DNA of 64,000 bases from Candidatus Saccharimonadales bacterium (GCA_035480575.1 DATIHR010000022.1:750-64749), one strand, 5' to 3'. Positions 1-8,560 are shown, numbered from the stretch's first letter. The notes: generated by a model not told the origin, from the sequence alone. Translations and numbers: made by a program.

Positions 1-3000
1 TCATCCGGCACTATCAATAACGATTGGTTTTACTCTAGATGGTCCGGCTATTTCGTAGCCCCAGCAACTGGCACCTACTACTTCGGCGGTAATAACGACG
101 ATTTACTCAAAGTAACTATCAATGGCCAGCAAGTATACATTAACGGTGGATGCTATACGGGCGTCTGCTATGGCTCGAGTATTACGCTGCAAGCTGGACA
201 AGTTGTGCCCATCGACGTACAACACAAAGAAGTAACCGGCCCGGCGTATGCACATCTATACGTTAAGGGGCCTGTGGACGAACAGGTGGTACCGCAAGCC
301 TGGTTACAGACTGGTGTACGGCCAGTATCCAACCAGCATGGTCTAACCGGCAGCTACTACGGCAAGTTCGACGGCACTAATACTTTCTCAAGCGGTAACG
401 CCCTGGTTATGAAGCGCACAGATACATTCCTGAACTTTGATTGGGGTAGCGGAGCGCCGGTAGCTAACGGCCCGGCAGACTTCCTGGTGCGTTGGTCCGG
501 ATACGTAACTGTACCGGTAAGCGGCACCTATAACTTCGGTACTAACAGTGATGATGGTTCCAAGATTACCGTCGGCACCGGCAATACTGTCGTGTACAAC
601 GATTGGACTACGCATGGCCCGACAGAGGGCTATGGTACGGGATATTTCCTAACCGCCAATCAGCCAGTACCCATTACGATTGAGTACTTCGATCAAGGCG
701 GCCCAGCTAGTTTCCAATTCAAAGTCCAGGGTGCTGTATCGCAGCAGATCGTTCCAAGCGATTGGCTGTCGCCAAAAGCCCAAGTATTACCTGACGGTTG
801 GAATCTGGGCATTGATCCAGATGGCGATCTTAACTATGATCACCTGAAAGCTAATCAAAATAGCGTAGTACTGAGCGATTCCACCGGCGATACGCACGAA
901 TATACCTACGTCAATGGCGGCTACAGACCACCAGTGAATGAAGACGGCCAGCTAGTGCGTAATGCTGACGGCACCTTTACTATGCAGGATACCGACGGCC
1001 GTACCTATGTGTTCGCGGCTGATGGCACACTCAGCTCTGTTACGAACCCAGTAGACGACCGCAAGCCAGCTGCTTTGCAGTATACCTACGGCAGTATCAA
1101 TGGCGGCCCGGCTACGCTAACTCAAATTACTGATGCCGTAGACTCCAGCCGTTGGGCAAAAGTGTACTATAGTGGCGATAGTAACTGCGGCAGCGCCCCA
1201 AGCAGCTTTGACACCAATGCACCCGCTGGTATGCTGTGTGCAGTAAAAACCAATGACGGCCGAGCCACCTACTTTTACTACAATACTGGCCAGTTGGCGC
1301 GTGTGGCCGAGCCAGGCAACCAGTACAATGATTACCAGTACGAAGCAGTAACAAATGGCGGTACAACGATTGGCTATCGTATGATAGGTACTCGCGATAG
1401 CTTGGCCAACGATGCTATTGCTGCCGGGGTTCGTTCAAACGATTCTACTGCTAAGACTGAAATGAGCTACGATGTACTTGGCCGTGTTACTAGCATTACG
1501 CAACCTGCAGCTACTGCTGGTGCCAGCCGTATGCAGCACACAGTTGAATATTTACCAGGCCCACTCGACAAGAGCTACGCGGGTGCTTCGCAGCAGCATA
1601 TAGTTGGAGCTACAGAACCAAATGGCTTCACTCATCGCGTGGAATACGACAATCTATTCAGAACTACTAAAGACACTGACATCACCAATCTCAGCACAAT
1701 TACTGAATGGGACGCCCTTAAAGACCTCCAGTACAGTACGACTGACGCCACTGGCCTTAAATCCACTGCGATTTACGATGACGAAGACCGCCCTACCGAC
1801 AGCTACGGCCCGGCACCAGCCAGCTACTACGGCACCGACCGCAAACCAACCAGTACATATGTGAGTCAAGTACCTCGTACCGAAAGCAAATACGACGAAG
1901 GGATAGTCGGCCCCGCTATAGCCTGGTATGACTACACTAAACAAACAGGCAACACTAACGGTACACTCTTTGGCGCTCCAAAGTTGCATACCACAGGCAT
2001 TAATACGGCTACGCCAGGCACGCTTAGCTACGACTTTGTTAGCCCACCTATTACTGCCAGTAGCGGTACGCAGGGCATTGGCCTGAGCGCTACCGGCAAG
2101 TTGCGACTACCTACCGGCACCTACGCCATTAACGCAGATACCAGCGATGGTGTTCGGGTATGGGTAGACGACCAGCTAGTGCTGGACAGTTGGATAGACA
2201 GTGCCTACCGAACTACTACCACCGGCATCGCCTTTACCGTTAGTGACAGCGTACCAAAACGTTTCCGCGCGGATGTATACCGTCGTACCGGATCTACGGG
2301 CACACTCAACCTCAAGATACAGCAGCAAGGTGGCTTTACCGCTACTACCGATTGGAGCAGTTACCTTAAGTCGGACTACTCGTTAGCCACTTCTGCCAAG
2401 ACTTATGACGCTACCCTTGGCGACAACACTACCACGACCAGCTATGGCAGTAACCCAGAGCTGGGTTTGGCCCAAAGCACTAGCCTCGACCCCACCGGCT
2501 TGAATCTAACTTCCACCAGTACCTACGAAACCCAGGGTGCTACCGGCAGCTACTTGCGCCAGCTAACCAAAACGTTGCCCGGCGGCAACACTACCAGCTA
2601 TAGCTACTACGGCGCAACTGAAACCAAGGACAACCCGTGTACTACCGGGACGACAGAGGCTTACAAACAGGCCGGTATGCTCAAGCTGCGTACTGACCCG
2701 GACCCCGACGGAGCAGGTTCCCAGACCCCTCGCACCACCGAAACAATCTACGATGATGCAGGTAAAGTTGTAGCTACACGCATAAATAGCGATTCGTGGA
2801 CGTGTACCACATACGATTCGCGCGAACGTGTAGCAAGTACAACTATCCCTGCTTACAATGGTGCGGCTGCCCGCACTATACAGAACGATTATGCCGTAGG
2901 CGGCAGCCCCCTGGTAGTAACAAGTTGGGACGATCAAGGCTGGATTGTAACTTGGATGGACCTTTTAGGCCGTAGTACTAAATATCGAGATGTACATGAT

Positions 3001-4788
3001 GACGAAACAACCAGCACTTACGACTCACAGGGCCATTTGACACAGCGGGTCAGCCCCCTCGGTACGGAAACATTCACCTACGACAATTTTGATCGGCTCG
3101 TAGACCAGAAGTTAGATACTGTCACCTATGCTCACATAACCTACGATACGTATAGCCGCATAGACAATGTTACCTACCCAGCCGCTGGTCAGCAAAAGGT
3201 CACCATGGCGCGCGACGCCCTGGGACGGCTCAACAGCCTCACCTATACCCTTGGAGACGGAACGACAACAGTTAACGATGTGGTAACACGCACACAGTCG
3301 AACCAAATCACAAGCGACGTCGTAACTTCCGGCTCTAACAGCCTCTGGTATAACTACAGCTATGACACAGCGGGTCGTATAACCGGCGCTACGGCTGGCC
3401 CGCATTCGTACAGCTACGGATACGGCACCGAATCTTCAACATGTAGCTCGGTAGCTGGTAACAATACAAATGCTGGTAAAAACAGCAATCGCACCACGCA
3501 AACAATTGATGGTACGACAACTACCTTCTGCTACGACCAGGCAGACCGTCTCAAGAGCAGCTCGAATGTGCTCTACAACGGTGGCGACTACGACAGTCAC
3601 GGCAACATGACGAGCGTAGGTACTGGTACCACTCCACTCCGTCTTTGCTTTGACAGTTCTGACAGGAATACCTGCATGACCCAACGTGACAGCAACGGTA
3701 CGGGTACAGCCATGTATTACAATCGCGATGTCCAGGGCCGCATTGTGGCAAGGTTCAAGAATACACTCACCAACTGGACAGCCACAGACGCTGGTGACTA
3801 CTGGTACGGCTTCACCGGCAGCGGTGACACTCCTGACTTTGTCCGTGACGCAGCCTGGAATGTTATCGAGAAGAATCTAGAGCTGCCTGGGGGCGTAATA
3901 GTGACCATAAAACCCCAAGAATCATTAGCCGCAAATAAAGCACTCTACTCGCTGCCGAACGTCCATGGCGATGTATTGCTGACAACCAACGCGAATGGTG
4001 TTAATACCTCTGCCGGTAATGGCCCGTTGAACACCTTTACGTATGATCCCTTTGGCCAAGTGTTAAGCGGTTCCGTCCTCCCCGCTAACGCAGACCATGC
4101 CAGCTATGGCTACGTAGGCCAGCACGAGAAGCTTACTGAGAGTGAGTATGCTCTTACACCCATCCAGATGGGATCGAGAGTGTATATACCAGGACTTGGT
4201 AGGTTCTTACAGGTCGACCCCCAAGAAGGTGGTACACCCAATAACTACGTGTACCCGCCAGATCCGATTAATGACTTTGACCTAAGCGGAGAATTCGGAT
4301 GGAAAAGCTTTGCGAGTATCGCGAGTGTTGGTTCGATGATACCCGGGCCCATAGGCATGGCGAGTGCTGCGGTGTCTGCTGCAGCTTATGCTGCTGCGGG
4401 GGATAAGAAACAGGCTCTGATAATGGCTGGCTGTGTCGCTGCGGCGGCAGTTGGGGCTGGTGCGGCGGTACAAGCCTACAAGATTGCCAAAGACGTTAAG
4501 GCGGTTTCTACGGTCGCTAAACTAGGTCAAATGCAGAAGGTCGCGGGGACGTCTGTACATGCAGCTCAGAGGATGCAGCAACGTAGCATCACGTCGACAA
4601 TGATACAAAAGGCGATACAAAAAGGCGTGAGATACAACGACGCTAAACATCTGAATACATACGCTCACGTTTTGCATGGTGGCATGGCATCGGGTAAGAC
4701 GCTGTATGTATCGACAAACAAATTCACCGGTAAGGTAATCACCGCTATAACGCGAAGGGTATTTAAGCCCGGAAAGAGGTGGTTCTAA
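1..4788 (+). CDS. Rhs/YD-repeat polymorphic toxin with PA14 domains, 5'-partial (frame is open from base 1); C-terminal DUF4258/RelE-like tip
   Basis: Frame 1 has no stop from base 1 ([18 protein letters not shown]...). PA14-like blocks (RWSGY...GTYxFG...DDG) at about 1-260, 340-770 and 1915-2330. YD repeats; Rhs core end GRFLQVDP...[10 protein letters not shown] ending at 4290; tip [12 protein letters not shown]. Confidence 0.9.
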
Positions 4789-4789
4789 A

Positions 4790-5020
4790 ATGAAAAGGAG
4801 AGATGAAGTGAAAGTTACTTATGATAAAGAGGCTGACGCAGCCTATATATACCTAGATGATATCAGTCAAGATGAAGTGTCAGAAACCTTCACTTGTGAC
4901 GATCTCCCCCCCACTGTTAAGGGGGATATTAACCTCGACTTTGACTCAAAGGGAATCTTAAGGGGTATTGAGATCCTTGGCGCATCGAAAGTCCTACCCC
5001 AAAATGCTCTCAAAGGTTAG
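4790..5020 (+). CDS. DUF2283-family protein, probable cognate immunity/antitoxin
   Basis: YDKEADAAYIYL...INLDFDSKGILRGIEILGAS motif; starts 1 nt after the toxin stop. Confidence 0.8.
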   Translation: MKRRDEVKVTYDKEADAAYIYLDDISQDEVSETFTCDDLPPTVKGDINLDFDSKGILRGIEILGASKVLPQNALKG

Positions 5021-5023
5021 ATA

Positions 5024-5500
5024 ATGCCAAAGTACAACATAGATTTTGAGGGCCAACCAACAAAAGGTACACTTGTTTATATAGAAGAAGATCATGCCTT
5101 CAACTTTACCGGCTTTGATAAACGGATGAAGACAGCGGCCATCACCATAAACGAAACACTACAAGTTGAATTTTTAGTTGAGACGGGAAAAGTGGTTTAC
5201 GTATGGGGTTATTATCCAAAAGAGTCCTGGGGCAGTGGCAAGGTTGTGCCTCCCCATCACACCAATGGGGAGGTGTATGTTGACGTGGGCGAAGCTCCTG
5301 ATATGGGGGTTGGTTATGAAGAACCTTCTGTTGTCGGCAAGGCGGTGTTTGATCGGGAGAGCGGCTGGTTTCATATTGGTGCCCCTGAATGCTCTACTTG
5401 CATAGAGGTGGCCGACCATACCGTCCTAGGATTCGATGTAGAGAATCATTTAAGGTCAGTATGGCTCCATCCGGACATTCAGGCAAAAGACGCCCTATAG
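5024..5500 (+). CDS. Putative orphan immunity protein
   Basis: 158-aa ORF 3 nt after DUF2283; beta-rich, ends LRSVWLHP; position in the toxin locus. Confidence 0.5.
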   Translation: MPKYNIDFEGQPTKGTLVYIEEDHAFNFTGFDKRMKTAAITINETLQVEFLVETGKVVYVWGYYPKESWGSGKVVPPHHTNGEVYVDVGEAPDMGVGYEEPSVVGKAVFDRESGWFHIGAPECSTCIEVADHTVLGFDVENHLRSVWLHPDIQAKDAL

Positions 5501-5522: not shown

Positions 5523-5840
5523 ATGACAGTGAACAACAAAAGTTTTTGGGTGTTTGCCTATCGGCATGAGGGTGAATACGTCCCCGAAGAGATTGTGGGT
5601 GCCCCAGAAGATAGGTTTGCAAATCTTGAATACGGGGACGTCAAAGAGGGTTCATATCAGTTGTGGGAATACCCAAGCGGCAAGATATTCAATATAGCAC
5701 CCGATAGAGAGCTTGGTAAAGACGAGGACTATTATGCGACGCCGTATAACAACAAGGGTAGCGTATGGTTGCCGAAACTTGTGGAAGTGGGTGTTGACCA
5801 AGATAGGGTCGCGAAGGCGTATAGCGGCTTGAAGGTCTAG
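5523..5840 (+). CDS. Hypothetical protein, possible orphan immunity
   Basis: 105-aa acidic ORF, co-oriented and tightly packed in the toxin locus. Confidence 0.5.
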   Translation: MTVNNKSFWVFAYRHEGEYVPEEIVGAPEDRFANLEYGDVKEGSYQLWEYPSGKIFNIAPDRELGKDEDYYATPYNNKGSVWLPKLVEVGVDQDRVAKAYSGLKV

Positions 5841-5842
5841 AC

Positions 5843-6415
5843 TTGATGATAGTTACACCCAAACAAGACATTTTTGAGCCAGGAGACTCTAAAAATCCCC
5901 TAAGGATATTCACCAAAGGTAAAGATTATATTGTCTACGCGCTTTACCTAGAGAAAGATATACCAAAATGGTATTGCTTATTGCACGATGAGGATGCAGG
6001 CTATTATCCGATGGCGCATGAGGCAATCAAGTTTAAGGTAGTTGACAATGACACTACTGCTAACTGGGTCTACTCAAAGAAACGCGGCGTATTCCGCAAA
6101 GAGCAAACCTACTCGTATCCAGAATGGGCAAACGATAAAACCTATTATCAATACCTGGTTGGCGACGACCTCCATCCGGCCGAGAGCAAAAAGGCAGCTA
6201 ACGTATTCCAAGATAAAGTGGCACAGTACACCAAAGATTATGCCATCAAAAAGTTTGGTTCGGTCAAAGCGGCGAAAGAACACGTACTGAAGAAGCGCTA
6301 TGAGGATGAATTAAGACTTCATAAAGAGCGCGGCTTTGACCGCCCGGAGAAGCCGGAAGTTACCGATAAAATCCTTGATAGTCTGCCTTTACGCATGGCG
6401 GATATAGCCGACTAA
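5843..6415 (+). CDS. Putative orphan immunity protein
   Basis: 190 aa; Y..YAL...YPMAHEAIKFKVVD...YSYPEWANDKTYYQYLV pattern recalled from toxin-locus immunity genes. Confidence 0.5.
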   Translation: MMIVTPKQDIFEPGDSKNPLRIFTKGKDYIVYALYLEKDIPKWYCLLHDEDAGYYPMAHEAIKFKVVDNDTTANWVYSKKRGVFRKEQTYSYPEWANDKTYYQYLVGDDLHPAESKKAANVFQDKVAQYTKDYAIKKFGSVKAAKEHVLKKRYEDELRLHKERGFDRPEKPEVTDKILDSLPLRMADIAD

Positions 6416-6928: not shown

Positions 6929-8506
6929 ATGTTAAAATGGGGCATGCCTCGCAAAGAATCGATAGACATACGCAAACTCCGATACGTGTTGTACGCCCGC
7001 AAATCAACTGAAGATGAAGCGCGTCAGGTGCGTTCAGTCGGTGACCAGATAAAGGACTGCCAGAAGCTGGCAAAAGATCTTGGGCTGAACGTCGTCGAGA
7101 CAATAAAAGAGACCAAATCTGCCAAGCGTCCGGATCAACGACCTCTTTTCTCGAAGATGATTAAAGACATTGAGGCGAAGAAATACGATGCCATCCTTTG
7201 CTGGCACCCTGACAGGTTGTGTCGAAACATGCTTGAGGGTGGCCGCATTATCAATATGTTGGACGAGAACACGTTAAAAGATATTCGTTTCAACAGCCAC
7301 CAATTTAGCAATGATGCAAACGGCAAAATGCTCCTGGGTATGCTTTTTGTTTTCTCGAAGCAATATTCGGACGACCTATCTGATAAAGTAAATCGCGGTA
7401 TAAGCGGTAATCTGGAAGAAGGTAAATCGGCGGGTGCGCCTAAGCTGGGATACACGCGCAGCGAGGTGACTGGCTATTACGAACCTAACGAATTTTTTGG
7501 TGTAATCGAAGAGGCCTGGCGTAGAAGGCTTACCGGCGAGAGCTTAGATGCAATAACTGCCTACTTACATGAACAGAATGTCCATAGGGTGACGAAGAAT
7601 AAGAAGAAACAGCGAATTCTAAGACCAGGCAAAAGTACCGTCGGTTATATGTTCAGCGACCCATTCTACTACGGCATTTTGATACAGGCTAGCCAAACTG
7701 TTGATTTATGCGAGCTTACACCTTTCAAGAAGATCGTCACCAAAGAGATGTACGAACAGGTGCAGGCCCTGGGTTACGGCAGGACAAAAAGTCATGCCGA
7801 CAAGAAACGGACAACGTTTTTCCCGTTGCGTGGTTTTGTATATTGCGGAGTTTGTAATAGCGATAAATACATGAAGGTGGGCAAAAATAAGACTGGCGGC
7901 GGCACGTACGTCCTTACTTACAGGTGTGACAATAAAGAGTGCACGCGTCAGGTGAAGTCTTTTAGAGCCAAGTACATATTTGAATCGATTTATAAAACAC
8001 TGGATAAGTTTGAACTAGGCGATGAGGCTTATGGCCGCTATAGTGCGAAGATTGACGGCCGCACTGATGAGAAGATAGTTGAAATCAAACAAGCCATTCA
8101 CAGTAAGCGTGGAGTCTTGAGCCACATTAAAAGTGAGCTTAGTGAGCGGGCGTTGGCTGTTGGGCGTATGGAAAAGAAGTCGCCAGCATATCAGCCGAAC
8201 ATGGATAAGCTCGAACAGCTTGCCGATCAACAGGCCGATCTTGAAGAAGAAATTCGCAAGCTGGATGAAAAAGTGGCAAATCCGCGCCAAATAAAGGTAG
8301 GCAGGGAAGAGTTTTTGAACCTGGTGAAAACAGCGTCACAACGGATGAAAGCTGGCTCTGCAGTCGAAAAAGACGTACTTTGTCGCATTTTGTTTTTGAA
8401 CCTACGCGTAGATAACGAAAAAGTGGCCTCCTACCTCTGGCGCGAACCGTTCGCGACGTTGGTAAAGGCCACTGAAATCCAGGATGGTGGGGGTGGATGG
8501 ACTTGA
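6929..8506 (+). CDS. Large serine recombinase/integrase
   Basis: YARKSTE catalytic motif, resolvase domain, recombinase domain, Zn ribbon (CGVC...YRCDNKEC) and coiled coil; 525 aa. Confidence 0.92.
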   Translation: MLKWGMPRKESIDIRKLRYVLYARKSTEDEARQVRSVGDQIKDCQKLAKDLGLNVVETIKETKSAKRPDQRPLFSKMIKDIEAKKYDAILCWHPDRLCRNMLEGGRIINMLDENTLKDIRFNSHQFSNDANGKMLLGMLFVFSKQYSDDLSDKVNRGISGNLEEGKSAGAPKLGYTRSEVTGYYEPNEFFGVIEEAWRRRLTGESLDAITAYLHEQNVHRVTKNKKKQRILRPGKSTVGYMFSDPFYYGILIQASQTVDLCELTPFKKIVTKEMYEQVQALGYGRTKSHADKKRTTFFPLRGFVYCGVCNSDKYMKVGKNKTGGGTYVLTYRCDNKECTRQVKSFRAKYIFESIYKTLDKFELGDEAYGRYSAKIDGRTDEKIVEIKQAIHSKRGVLSHIKSELSERALAVGRMEKKSPAYQPNMDKLEQLADQQADLEEEIRKLDEKVANPRQIKVGREEFLNLVKTASQRMKAGSAVEKDVLCRILFLNLRVDNEKVASYLWREPFATLVKATEIQDGGGGWT

Positions 8507-8560
8507 ACCATCGACCAAAGGATTATGAGTCCTCTGCTCTAACCACTGAGCTACACCCCC
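8485..8560 (-). tRNA. tRNA-Ile2 (CAU, lysidine type), CCA encoded
   Basis: GGGGGTGTAGCTCAGTGGTTAGAGCAGAGGACTCATAATCCTTTGGTCGATGGTTCAAGTCCATCCACCCCCACCA. Ile2 assigned by resemblance and by elimination, since fMet and elongator Met are found elsewhere in the window. Confidence 0.85.

Follow-up and report, generated by a model that had tools for sequence, protein, structure and literature searches.

A probable Rhs polymorphic toxin of the Sec-exported, WapA-like kind in a soil Saccharibacterium, with a DUF4258 tip and a presumed DUF2283 immunity partner

The first part of a 64,000-nucleotide stretch of DNA from a Candidatus Saccharimonadales bacterium (GCA_035480575.1, DATIHR010000022.1:750-64749; this whole stretch is called the window below) holds the last 4.8 kb, at the 3′ side, of a gene for an Rhs/YD polymorphic toxin, present as a single open frame at 1-4788 on the plus strand and followed directly by a gene of the DUF2283 family. 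The locus probably encodes a polymorphic toxin that a soil Saccharibacterium exports by the Sec route, as in WapA, along with the immunity protein for this Rhs toxin. In the mechanism proposed here, the Rhs protein would first be exported via the Sec pathway. Its YD repeats would form a shell bearing three outward-facing PA14 domains, which probably bind the surface of a neighboring cell and may do so through glycans. The shell would enclose the last 165 residues of the protein, and these would be cut free after the motif that ends the Rhs core. Two elements would thereby be released: an Ala/Gly-rich module, probably a helical hairpin, that may help to cross the target membrane, and a domain of about 90 residues of the DUF4258 family, assigned to the RelE/ParE (BECR) superfamily, that would most likely act as an RNase. 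In the producer and its kin, the DUF2283 protein would bind and neutralize this tip, and the cells attacked would be other Saccharibacteria or actinobacterial hosts.

The body of the protein combines PA14 domains with a YD shell and an Rhs core. Three PA14 stretches, scored as separate pieces, exceed the Pfam cut-off of 24 bits. The first (1-273, plus strand) has its start some 125 nt upstream of the window's first base and scores 55.2 bits, the second (334-714, plus strand) scores 64.1 bits, and the third, within a segment at 1852-2403 (plus strand) whose Pfam core lies at about 2053-2235, reaches 31.8 bits over profile positions 38-90 of 147. Domains 1 and 2 also exceed the cut-off for GLEYA, with 26.6 and 36.8 bits, and carry an NDD motif at window 94 and an SDD motif at window 547, respectively; the third domain has SDG in place of this motif. 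DD is the calcium/sugar motif of PA14 domains of the GLEYA/Flo5 type, and by profile and DD motif the PA14 domains are predicted to be of the lectin type. The best-scoring RHS/YD repeat is found at 3019-3102 (plus strand; PF05593, 53 bits in a fragment scan; TIGR01643, 33.9 bits), and the Rhs-associated core follows at 4042-4290 (plus strand), corresponding to amino acids 1348-1430 of the open reading frame (TIGR03696, 45.9 bits with a cut-off of 32.5). The core closes at window 4261-4290 with a DLSG variant of the PxxxxDPxGL-type end, a variant common to the homologue family. This motif is presumed to be the site of autoproteolysis and would separate the conserved body from the C-terminus, which is variable. 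The original prediction, made from the sequence of the window alone, had described at least three PA14 domains, one of them within the YD region, and an Rhs core with its end motif; both descriptions agree with the profile scores, the third PA14 domain lying between YD regions. Upstream of the first PA14 domain, at 3-620 of the contig that carries the window (C22), 206 residues without a Pfam match contain GPVDVDLATGNL, a stretch resembling the initial strands of Rhs shells. If these are indeed shell strands, PA14 domains 1 and 2 would be inserted into the shell as well.

Beyond the core the family diverges: 120 homologues that are 52-83% identical in the body carry unrelated C-termini after a fixed YVYPxDPxNxFDLxG. 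At the end of the window's protein stands a tip of the DUF4258 type (PF14076; 4513-4785, plus strand, 91 aa). The tip, recognized earlier by its HAAQRM letters, does belong to this family when scanned alone: window 4501-4785 (95 residues) scores 27.2 bits (E 5e-6) with a Pfam gathering cut-off of 25 bits. The score is 26.8 bits in the genome search and falls to 21.0-21.3 bits, below the cut-off, when the tip is scored inside the long protein. In the 1.29-Mb genome searched, the tip is the only DUF4258 match and its neighbor gene the only DUF2283 match. The tip holds SVHAAQRM, with the histidine kept in at least 90% of a 37-sequence subfamily alignment, and includes the HA motif conserved in DUF4258. 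The positions near-invariant in this alignment, namely H16 (codon at window 4558-4560), R24, D43, S60, T77, and R89, are all kept in the tip.

An exhaustive search with the C-terminus of the Rhs protein returned 250 relatives, and the matches form two separate modules, query residues 1-88 and 86-160. Among the 150 hits listed, 87 match the tip only, 61 the preceding linker only, and two match both. The tip domain lies at most 21 residues from the C-terminus in all 89 relatives scored among the listed hits, and its bearers include Rhs proteins of other phyla as well as short proteins with signal peptides. A word-based search found no short relatives of the tip, a search with the tip in plasmids gave no match, and the narrower tip alignment used for the search of loci returned two genome loci.

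The gene presumed to protect the producer is located at 4790-5020 (plus strand, 76 aa) and matches DUF2283 (PF10049) with 54.7 bits, the cut-off being 23. A single base separates the Rhs stop codon from the ATG of this gene, which is preceded by AGAGGTGG; the position suggests translational coupling to the toxin gene. The same arrangement recurs elsewhere. In six metagenomic loci a tip of the subfamily, about 40-57% identical, is directly followed by a gene of 74-77 aa, and five of these six partners are DUF2283 proteins above the cut-off (23.7-58.3 bits), the sixth falling below it with 20.7 bits. Two of the loci are orphan cassettes behind PA14-Rhs genes, one annotated as such in the locus and the other on a contig equal in length to that of a homologue (P0192). 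In a Gemmatimonadales locus, the tip is followed by a 79-aa gene whose product aligns with DUF2283 relatives and has no Pfam match. Taken together, a tip and a following gene of 74-79 aa occur in seven of eight other loci, an adjacency that supports a cognate toxin/immunity pair in which the DUF2283 protein is presumed to be the immunity partner. This recurrence in independent loci strengthens the earlier reading, in which a polymorphic toxin of the Rhs type ends in a DUF4258 tip and adjoins a DUF2283 gene.

A further example comes from plasmid pCM2 of Clavibacter capsici (L014, 687-1749), which encodes a DUF4258 protein of 274 aa that carries a Sec signal peptide and, after a gap of 4 nt, a DUF2283 protein 48% identical to that of the window. 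The plasmid pair looks like a secreted toxin with its immunity protein rather than a classical cytoplasmic toxin-antitoxin system. Together with the loci described above, it indicates that the pairing of tip and DUF2283 recurs in several backgrounds, mostly with exported toxins. For the claim that DUF4258-DUF2283 is a known stand-alone toxin-antitoxin pairing, no paper naming both families was found among those searched, and the plasmid example is itself a secreted toxin. Among the plasmid relatives of the DUF2283 protein, 12 of 14 are actinobacterial. The predicted structure of the window's DUF2283 protein (pLDDT 76) consists of four strands; neither sequence and profile searches nor Foldseek against the PDB matched it to a solved structure, and no DNA-binding domain was found in its 76 residues. 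A pair of another kind was seen on a 2.5-kb metagenome contig (L008, 109-2275), where a 134-aa protein of the tip subfamily without an Rhs part is encoded together with a DUF2283 gene (30.4 bits, above the cut-off) and directly adjoins an AbiEi/AbiEii pair.

How such a protein might leave the cell can be narrowed down from the genome and from the family. Searches of the 93%-complete genome for PAAR (PF05488), TssC (PF05943), VgrG/Phage_GPD (PF05954), and Hcp (PF05638), all parts of a type VI secretion system (T6SS), gave no match, in keeping with the expectation that no such system would be found here. Delivery by a T6SS was rejected on these grounds. A Sec-type signal peptide, in contrast to the unknown route put forward in the original prediction, is present in 104 of 112 full-length homologues, as judged by a crude rule. 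It is also present in a paralogue from another Rhs locus of the same genome, which is complete and lies on the minus strand of contig C35 (C35:29779-39945). The paralogue has 2,326 codons, is 50% identical to the window's protein, and starts with basic residues, AAGLLLLLFITTIAMPPAAVFA, and AEQD, which together make a typical Sec signal. The signal peptides of the paralogue and of the homologues argue that the family is Sec-exported, like WapA of Bacillus and other monoderm bacteria, so that what is left of the delivery question is the passage of the tip into the target cell.

The paralogue's C-terminus is glycine-zipper-like. After its gene follow a gene for a 121-aa membrane protein, which is immunity-like, an orphan Rhs C-terminal cassette of 840 codons that is 63% identical to residues 1001-1815 of the window's protein, and a gene for a 98-aa membrane protein. 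The C35 locus therefore pairs a membrane-type tip with membrane-type partners, in contrast to the soluble DUF4258/DUF2283 pair of the window.

A candidate for the entry step is the Ala/Gly-rich hydrophobic module at 4291-4524 (plus strand), between core and tip. The Ala/Gly-rich linker had been noticed before, and it proves to be a conserved module of about 75 residues, made of two moderately hydrophobic segments joined by AGDKK and without a Pfam family. Its consensus reads xFGWKSFAxIASxGSxIPGPIGM...AAGDKK...VGAGxAV, with IPGPIGM...AAGDKK...VGAGAAV in the window. The linker is common to at least 61 other listed proteins bearing different small C-terminal tips, and in 24 of the 40 best hits it stands behind the Rhs motif. 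It is found in 19 of 120 members of the Rhs family, some of them of Actinomycetota-like composition. The tail beyond it always comprises 51-87 residues; ten tails were scanned, and two are GIY-YIG-like (one above the cut-off) while one weakly resembles a restriction-endonuclease fold. Some orphan genes are called with a start inside the linker, which may therefore double as homology for cassette exchange. We propose the linker as a candidate membrane-entry module, a candidate stretch of recombination homology, or both. A bolder version must be regarded as doubtful: the linker might be a self-contained membrane-entry module that takes a tip from a Sec-exported PA14-Rhs cocoon into the cytoplasm of a monoderm with no injection machine, and the platform as a whole might have moved between Saccharimonadia and Actinomycetota, to which the hosts belong, so that the epibiont might direct it at its hosts.

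The Rhs protein belongs to a large family with more than 557 homologues, which public annotation names "PA14 domain-containing protein" or "RHS repeat-associated protein." Given this annotated family and an earlier report from the rhizosphere, the combination of PA14 and Rhs is not unique. The closest named homologue is 83% identical and carries the name "Candidatus Saccharimonadales bacterium," as do at least six others, and genomes of relatives in the class measure 0.7-1.7 Mb. Named homologues and genome sizes form the basis of the taxonomy and accord with the original assignment to the candidate phyla radiation, more precisely to a Saccharibacteria-like organism. No 16S sequence was detected in the assembly with universal primers and TM7 primers and probes. 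Of 401 species genomes of the class, 34 (from 27 of 187 genera) contain the Rhs body, which is not a binning artefact, because it is found in single-contig genomes of 0.9-1.3 Mb. The window's tip, among the same 401 genomes, is confined to the genome of the window.

Outside the class, full-length homologues at 53-56% identity are encoded in the Actinomycetota Allorhizocola, Kibdelosporangium, Actinokineospora, and Kribbella (P0194, P0225, P0256, and P0258). In a FastTree phylogeny of 121 sequences, which is unrooted and biased towards the query, the Actinomycetota and other rows of high-G+C composition fall into one 23-row clade (support 98) that also holds rows with signal peptides and composition of the Saccharimonadales type. 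This clade and the actinobacterial plasmid relatives of the DUF2283 protein suggest that genes were transferred, in one direction or the other, between the class of the epibiont and its host phylum.

Several points weigh against the picture of an exported RNase with its cognate immunity protein. The AlphaFold model of the tip, which is confident (pLDDT 86, pTM 0.75), shows two helices and then four strands, an order that fits RelE/ParE-type folds. Compared with the PDB by Foldseek, the model matches no solved RelE/BECR or other structure (best E 0.77), and sequence and profile searches likewise link the tip to no solved structure, so that its BECR fold is deduced from Pfam membership and the order of helices and strands only. 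DUF4258 has been placed in the BECR RelE/ParE superfamily with no activity assigned to it, and none of its members has a demonstrated activity (PMC11980606). The superfamily includes ParE, which poisons gyrase rather than cutting RNA. A tip from Caulobacter (L003) is followed by an unrelated helical protein of 96 aa. On the Kyte-Doolittle scale the linker reaches only about 1.2-1.8, a borderline value for insertion into a membrane. The window's Rhs gene does not reveal a signal peptide of its own, its N-terminus being off the contig.

The first two of these concerns leave room for a tip that, delivered by the same scheme, acts as a ParE-like gyrase poison or as some other non-nuclease toxin. 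This is unlikely. Gyrase inhibitors do occur in the superfamily, DUF4258 proteins lack an assigned activity (PMC11980606), and no RNase structure matched the tip model. However, the conserved pattern of His, Arg, Asp, and Thr fits acid-base catalysis. DUF4258 is moreover listed as a type of E. coli CdiA-CT marked "tRNase (?)", so that a contact-dependent toxin of the same Pfam family has tentatively been called a tRNase (PMC11630599). Foldseek against BFVD retrieved predicted phage proteins, among them DUF4258-type models with TM scores of 0.55-0.68 (best 0.68/0.88), and a phage model labelled Colicin D that matches the tip weakly, with TM 0.51-0.54. The tip is described here as most likely an RNase.

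A second alternative starts from the PA14 domains. The Rhs protein might mainly be an adhesin whose PA14 shell attaches the epibiont to the wall of its host in a teneurin-like manner, the tip being secondary or vestigial. Three PA14 domains, two of them with GLEYA-type scores and a retained DD motif, would suit such a role, as would the host-attached life of Saccharibacteria (PMC13622651) and the patchy yet recurrent occurrence of the family in the class. Against it speaks what is found at the other end of the protein: a C-terminus that is hypervariable past a fixed cleavage motif, orphan cassettes, and immunity-like genes are typical of antagonism, not of adhesion. The tip, moreover, has lost none of its subfamily's conserved residues and comes with a partner gene of its own. 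We consider this alternative quite improbable and regard an exported toxin as the better account of the locus.

The missing 5′ end of the gene could mean that it is a decaying or truncated remnant without current function. Base 1 of the window is base 750 of contig C22, in an assembly of 1.29 Mb in 36 contigs that is 93% complete. The Rhs frame extends 747 nt upstream of the window on this contig, bringing the protein to 1,844 residues (P0001), and then runs off the contig end without a start codon. The suggestion that the N-terminus could be recovered from the flanking contig was thus borne out for 249 more residues, the frame still being open where the contig ends. The N-terminus was found neither on other contigs nor in four soil runs that hold the locus, the contigs of these runs ending short of the first bases of C22, and the first 520 residues of the paralogue, used as a query, matched no other contig. 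By homology, the missing part would amount to about 480-530 residues and would include a Sec signal peptide. While the absence of the 5′ end from the assembly, with no other contig or public run extending the gene, would be expected of a remnant, 1,844 codons free of stops and a tip with every subfamily-conserved residue in place would not, and the break in the contig is consistent with the assembly having collapsed where it met the paralogue (50-63% identity). Decay is very unlikely.

The toxin and its partner are followed by three genes without a family match, encoding proteins of 158 aa (5024-5500), 105 aa (5523-5840), and 190 aa (5843-6415), all on the plus strand and preceded by gaps of 3, 22, and 2 nt. 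No terminator-like site was found on the plus strand among them. A homologue 41% identical to the 158-aa protein is encoded in an orphan array (L004), and one 30% identical to the 190-aa protein downstream of a DUF2283 gene (L005). These homologues in other Rhs or orphan arrays make two of the three candidate orphan immunity genes, and all three may be viewed as candidate orphan immunity or accessory genes. Further downstream, the 3′ end of a gene for a large serine recombinase (6929-8506, plus strand) overlaps a tRNA(CAT) gene on the minus strand (8485-8560), and the recombinase stop codon falls within the 3′ portion of the tRNA gene. Recombinase and tRNA gene possibly mark where a mobile element ends. 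No att repeat was found, the tRNA 3′ end having no second copy in the assembly, so that an island holding the toxin locus would be hypothetical. The G+C content is 0.52 in the Rhs body and drops to 0.43-0.48 in the tip, the DUF2283 gene, the downstream genes, and the recombinase; the drop at the tip is modest and no proof of recent transfer. That tip and DUF2283 form an addiction (toxin-antitoxin) module stabilizing a recombinase-bounded mobile island, and not an exported weapon, is scarcely credible, for although this fall in G+C, the recombinase abutting the tRNA gene, and the apparently Rhs-free tip and DUF2283-like pair beside the AbiE system in L008 speak in its favor, the tip stands in frame behind an Rhs core and a conserved linker, the 89 scored relatives are C-terminal domains without exception, several of them with Rhs cores or signal peptides, and the att repeat is missing.

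Read as an exported toxin with its immunity gene, the locus bears on the biology of Saccharibacteria and other ultra-small epibionts, in which harm, control, and competition over hosts are poorly understood and the usual injection systems are absent. Some Saccharibacteria would carry a complete set of Sec-exported Rhs weaponry, comprising toxin, immunity gene, and spare cassettes, and the same Rhs family is present in Actinomycetota, the phylum of known Saccharibacteria hosts. DUF4258-DUF2283 would constitute a small toxin/immunity pair drawn from two families without an assigned activity, and the conserved hydrophobic module may account for the entry of Rhs toxins into target cells without a T6SS.

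Among the closest parallels is the WapA/WapI system of Bacillus subtilis, reportedly described by Koskiniemi et al. in 2013. WapA of B. subtilis and WapA of Streptococcus suis are Sec-exported YD/Rhs toxins of monoderms (PMC12704120). The window's protein resembles WapA in the signal peptide of its family, the YD shell, the Rhs core, the polymorphic C-terminal toxin, the downstream immunity gene, and the absence of a T6SS. It differs in that WapA has cell-wall-binding repeats, for which no Pfam match was obtained in the 1,844 residues available, whereas the window's protein has three PA14 domains and a hydrophobic module before the tip; its host is an ultra-small epibiont, and no signal peptide is visible in this copy, whose N-terminus is missing. 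With the Rhs effectors of the T6SS (PMC8636562, PMC11461821) it shares the β-cocoon that encloses the toxin and has a C-terminal autocleavage motif, and orphan cassettes. In contrast to these effectors, it is encoded in a genome without PAAR, VgrG, Hcp, and TssC, and its family carries a Sec signal where they have a PAAR or clade domain.

The tip itself has counterparts in other delivery systems. E. coli CdiA-CT class 8 (PMC11630599) likewise places a DUF4258 tip at the end of a contact-dependent polymorphic toxin, with an entry module before the catalytic domain, yet it belongs to a two-partner secretion system of a diderm and its activity carries the question mark noted above. The type II RelE/ParE modules (PMC11980606) are similar in that the toxin domain's Pfam family is part of the superfamily and a small, presumably neutralizing partner is encoded next to it. 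They consist, however, of a stand-alone toxin and an autoregulating antitoxin, whereas the window's toxin is fused to an Rhs body as the C-terminal domain of an exported protein of the 2,300-aa class and its partner has no recognizable DNA-binding domain. The gene order also differs: DUF4258 modules are described as antitoxin-toxin (PMC11980606), while in the window the toxin precedes its partner. The latter order, together with a toxin bearing a Sec signal peptide, is shared by C. capsici pCM2, although that pair resides on an actinobacterial plasmid and has no Rhs shell, PA14 domain, or linker.

Within the Saccharibacteria, Starr et al. (2018) reported a 2,487-aa "possible secreted toxin" with RHS/YD repeats, PA14, and a neighboring immunity gene in Candidatus Teamsevenus rhizospherense (PMC6031116). 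By its description, this protein shares with the one in the window a soil or rhizosphere Saccharibacterium as host, RHS/YD repeats, PA14, polymorphic-toxin domains, and an immunity neighbor; the mention is a single sentence and says nothing about a tip, the family of the immunity protein, a linker, an export signal, or the distribution (PMC6031116). A PA14/RHS polymorphic toxin with a neighboring immunity gene is thus already known from a rhizosphere Saccharibacterium, and what is new here is the pairing of tip and immunity gene and its conservation, the proposed Sec export, the linker, the spread of the family within the class, and its connection with Actinomycetota.

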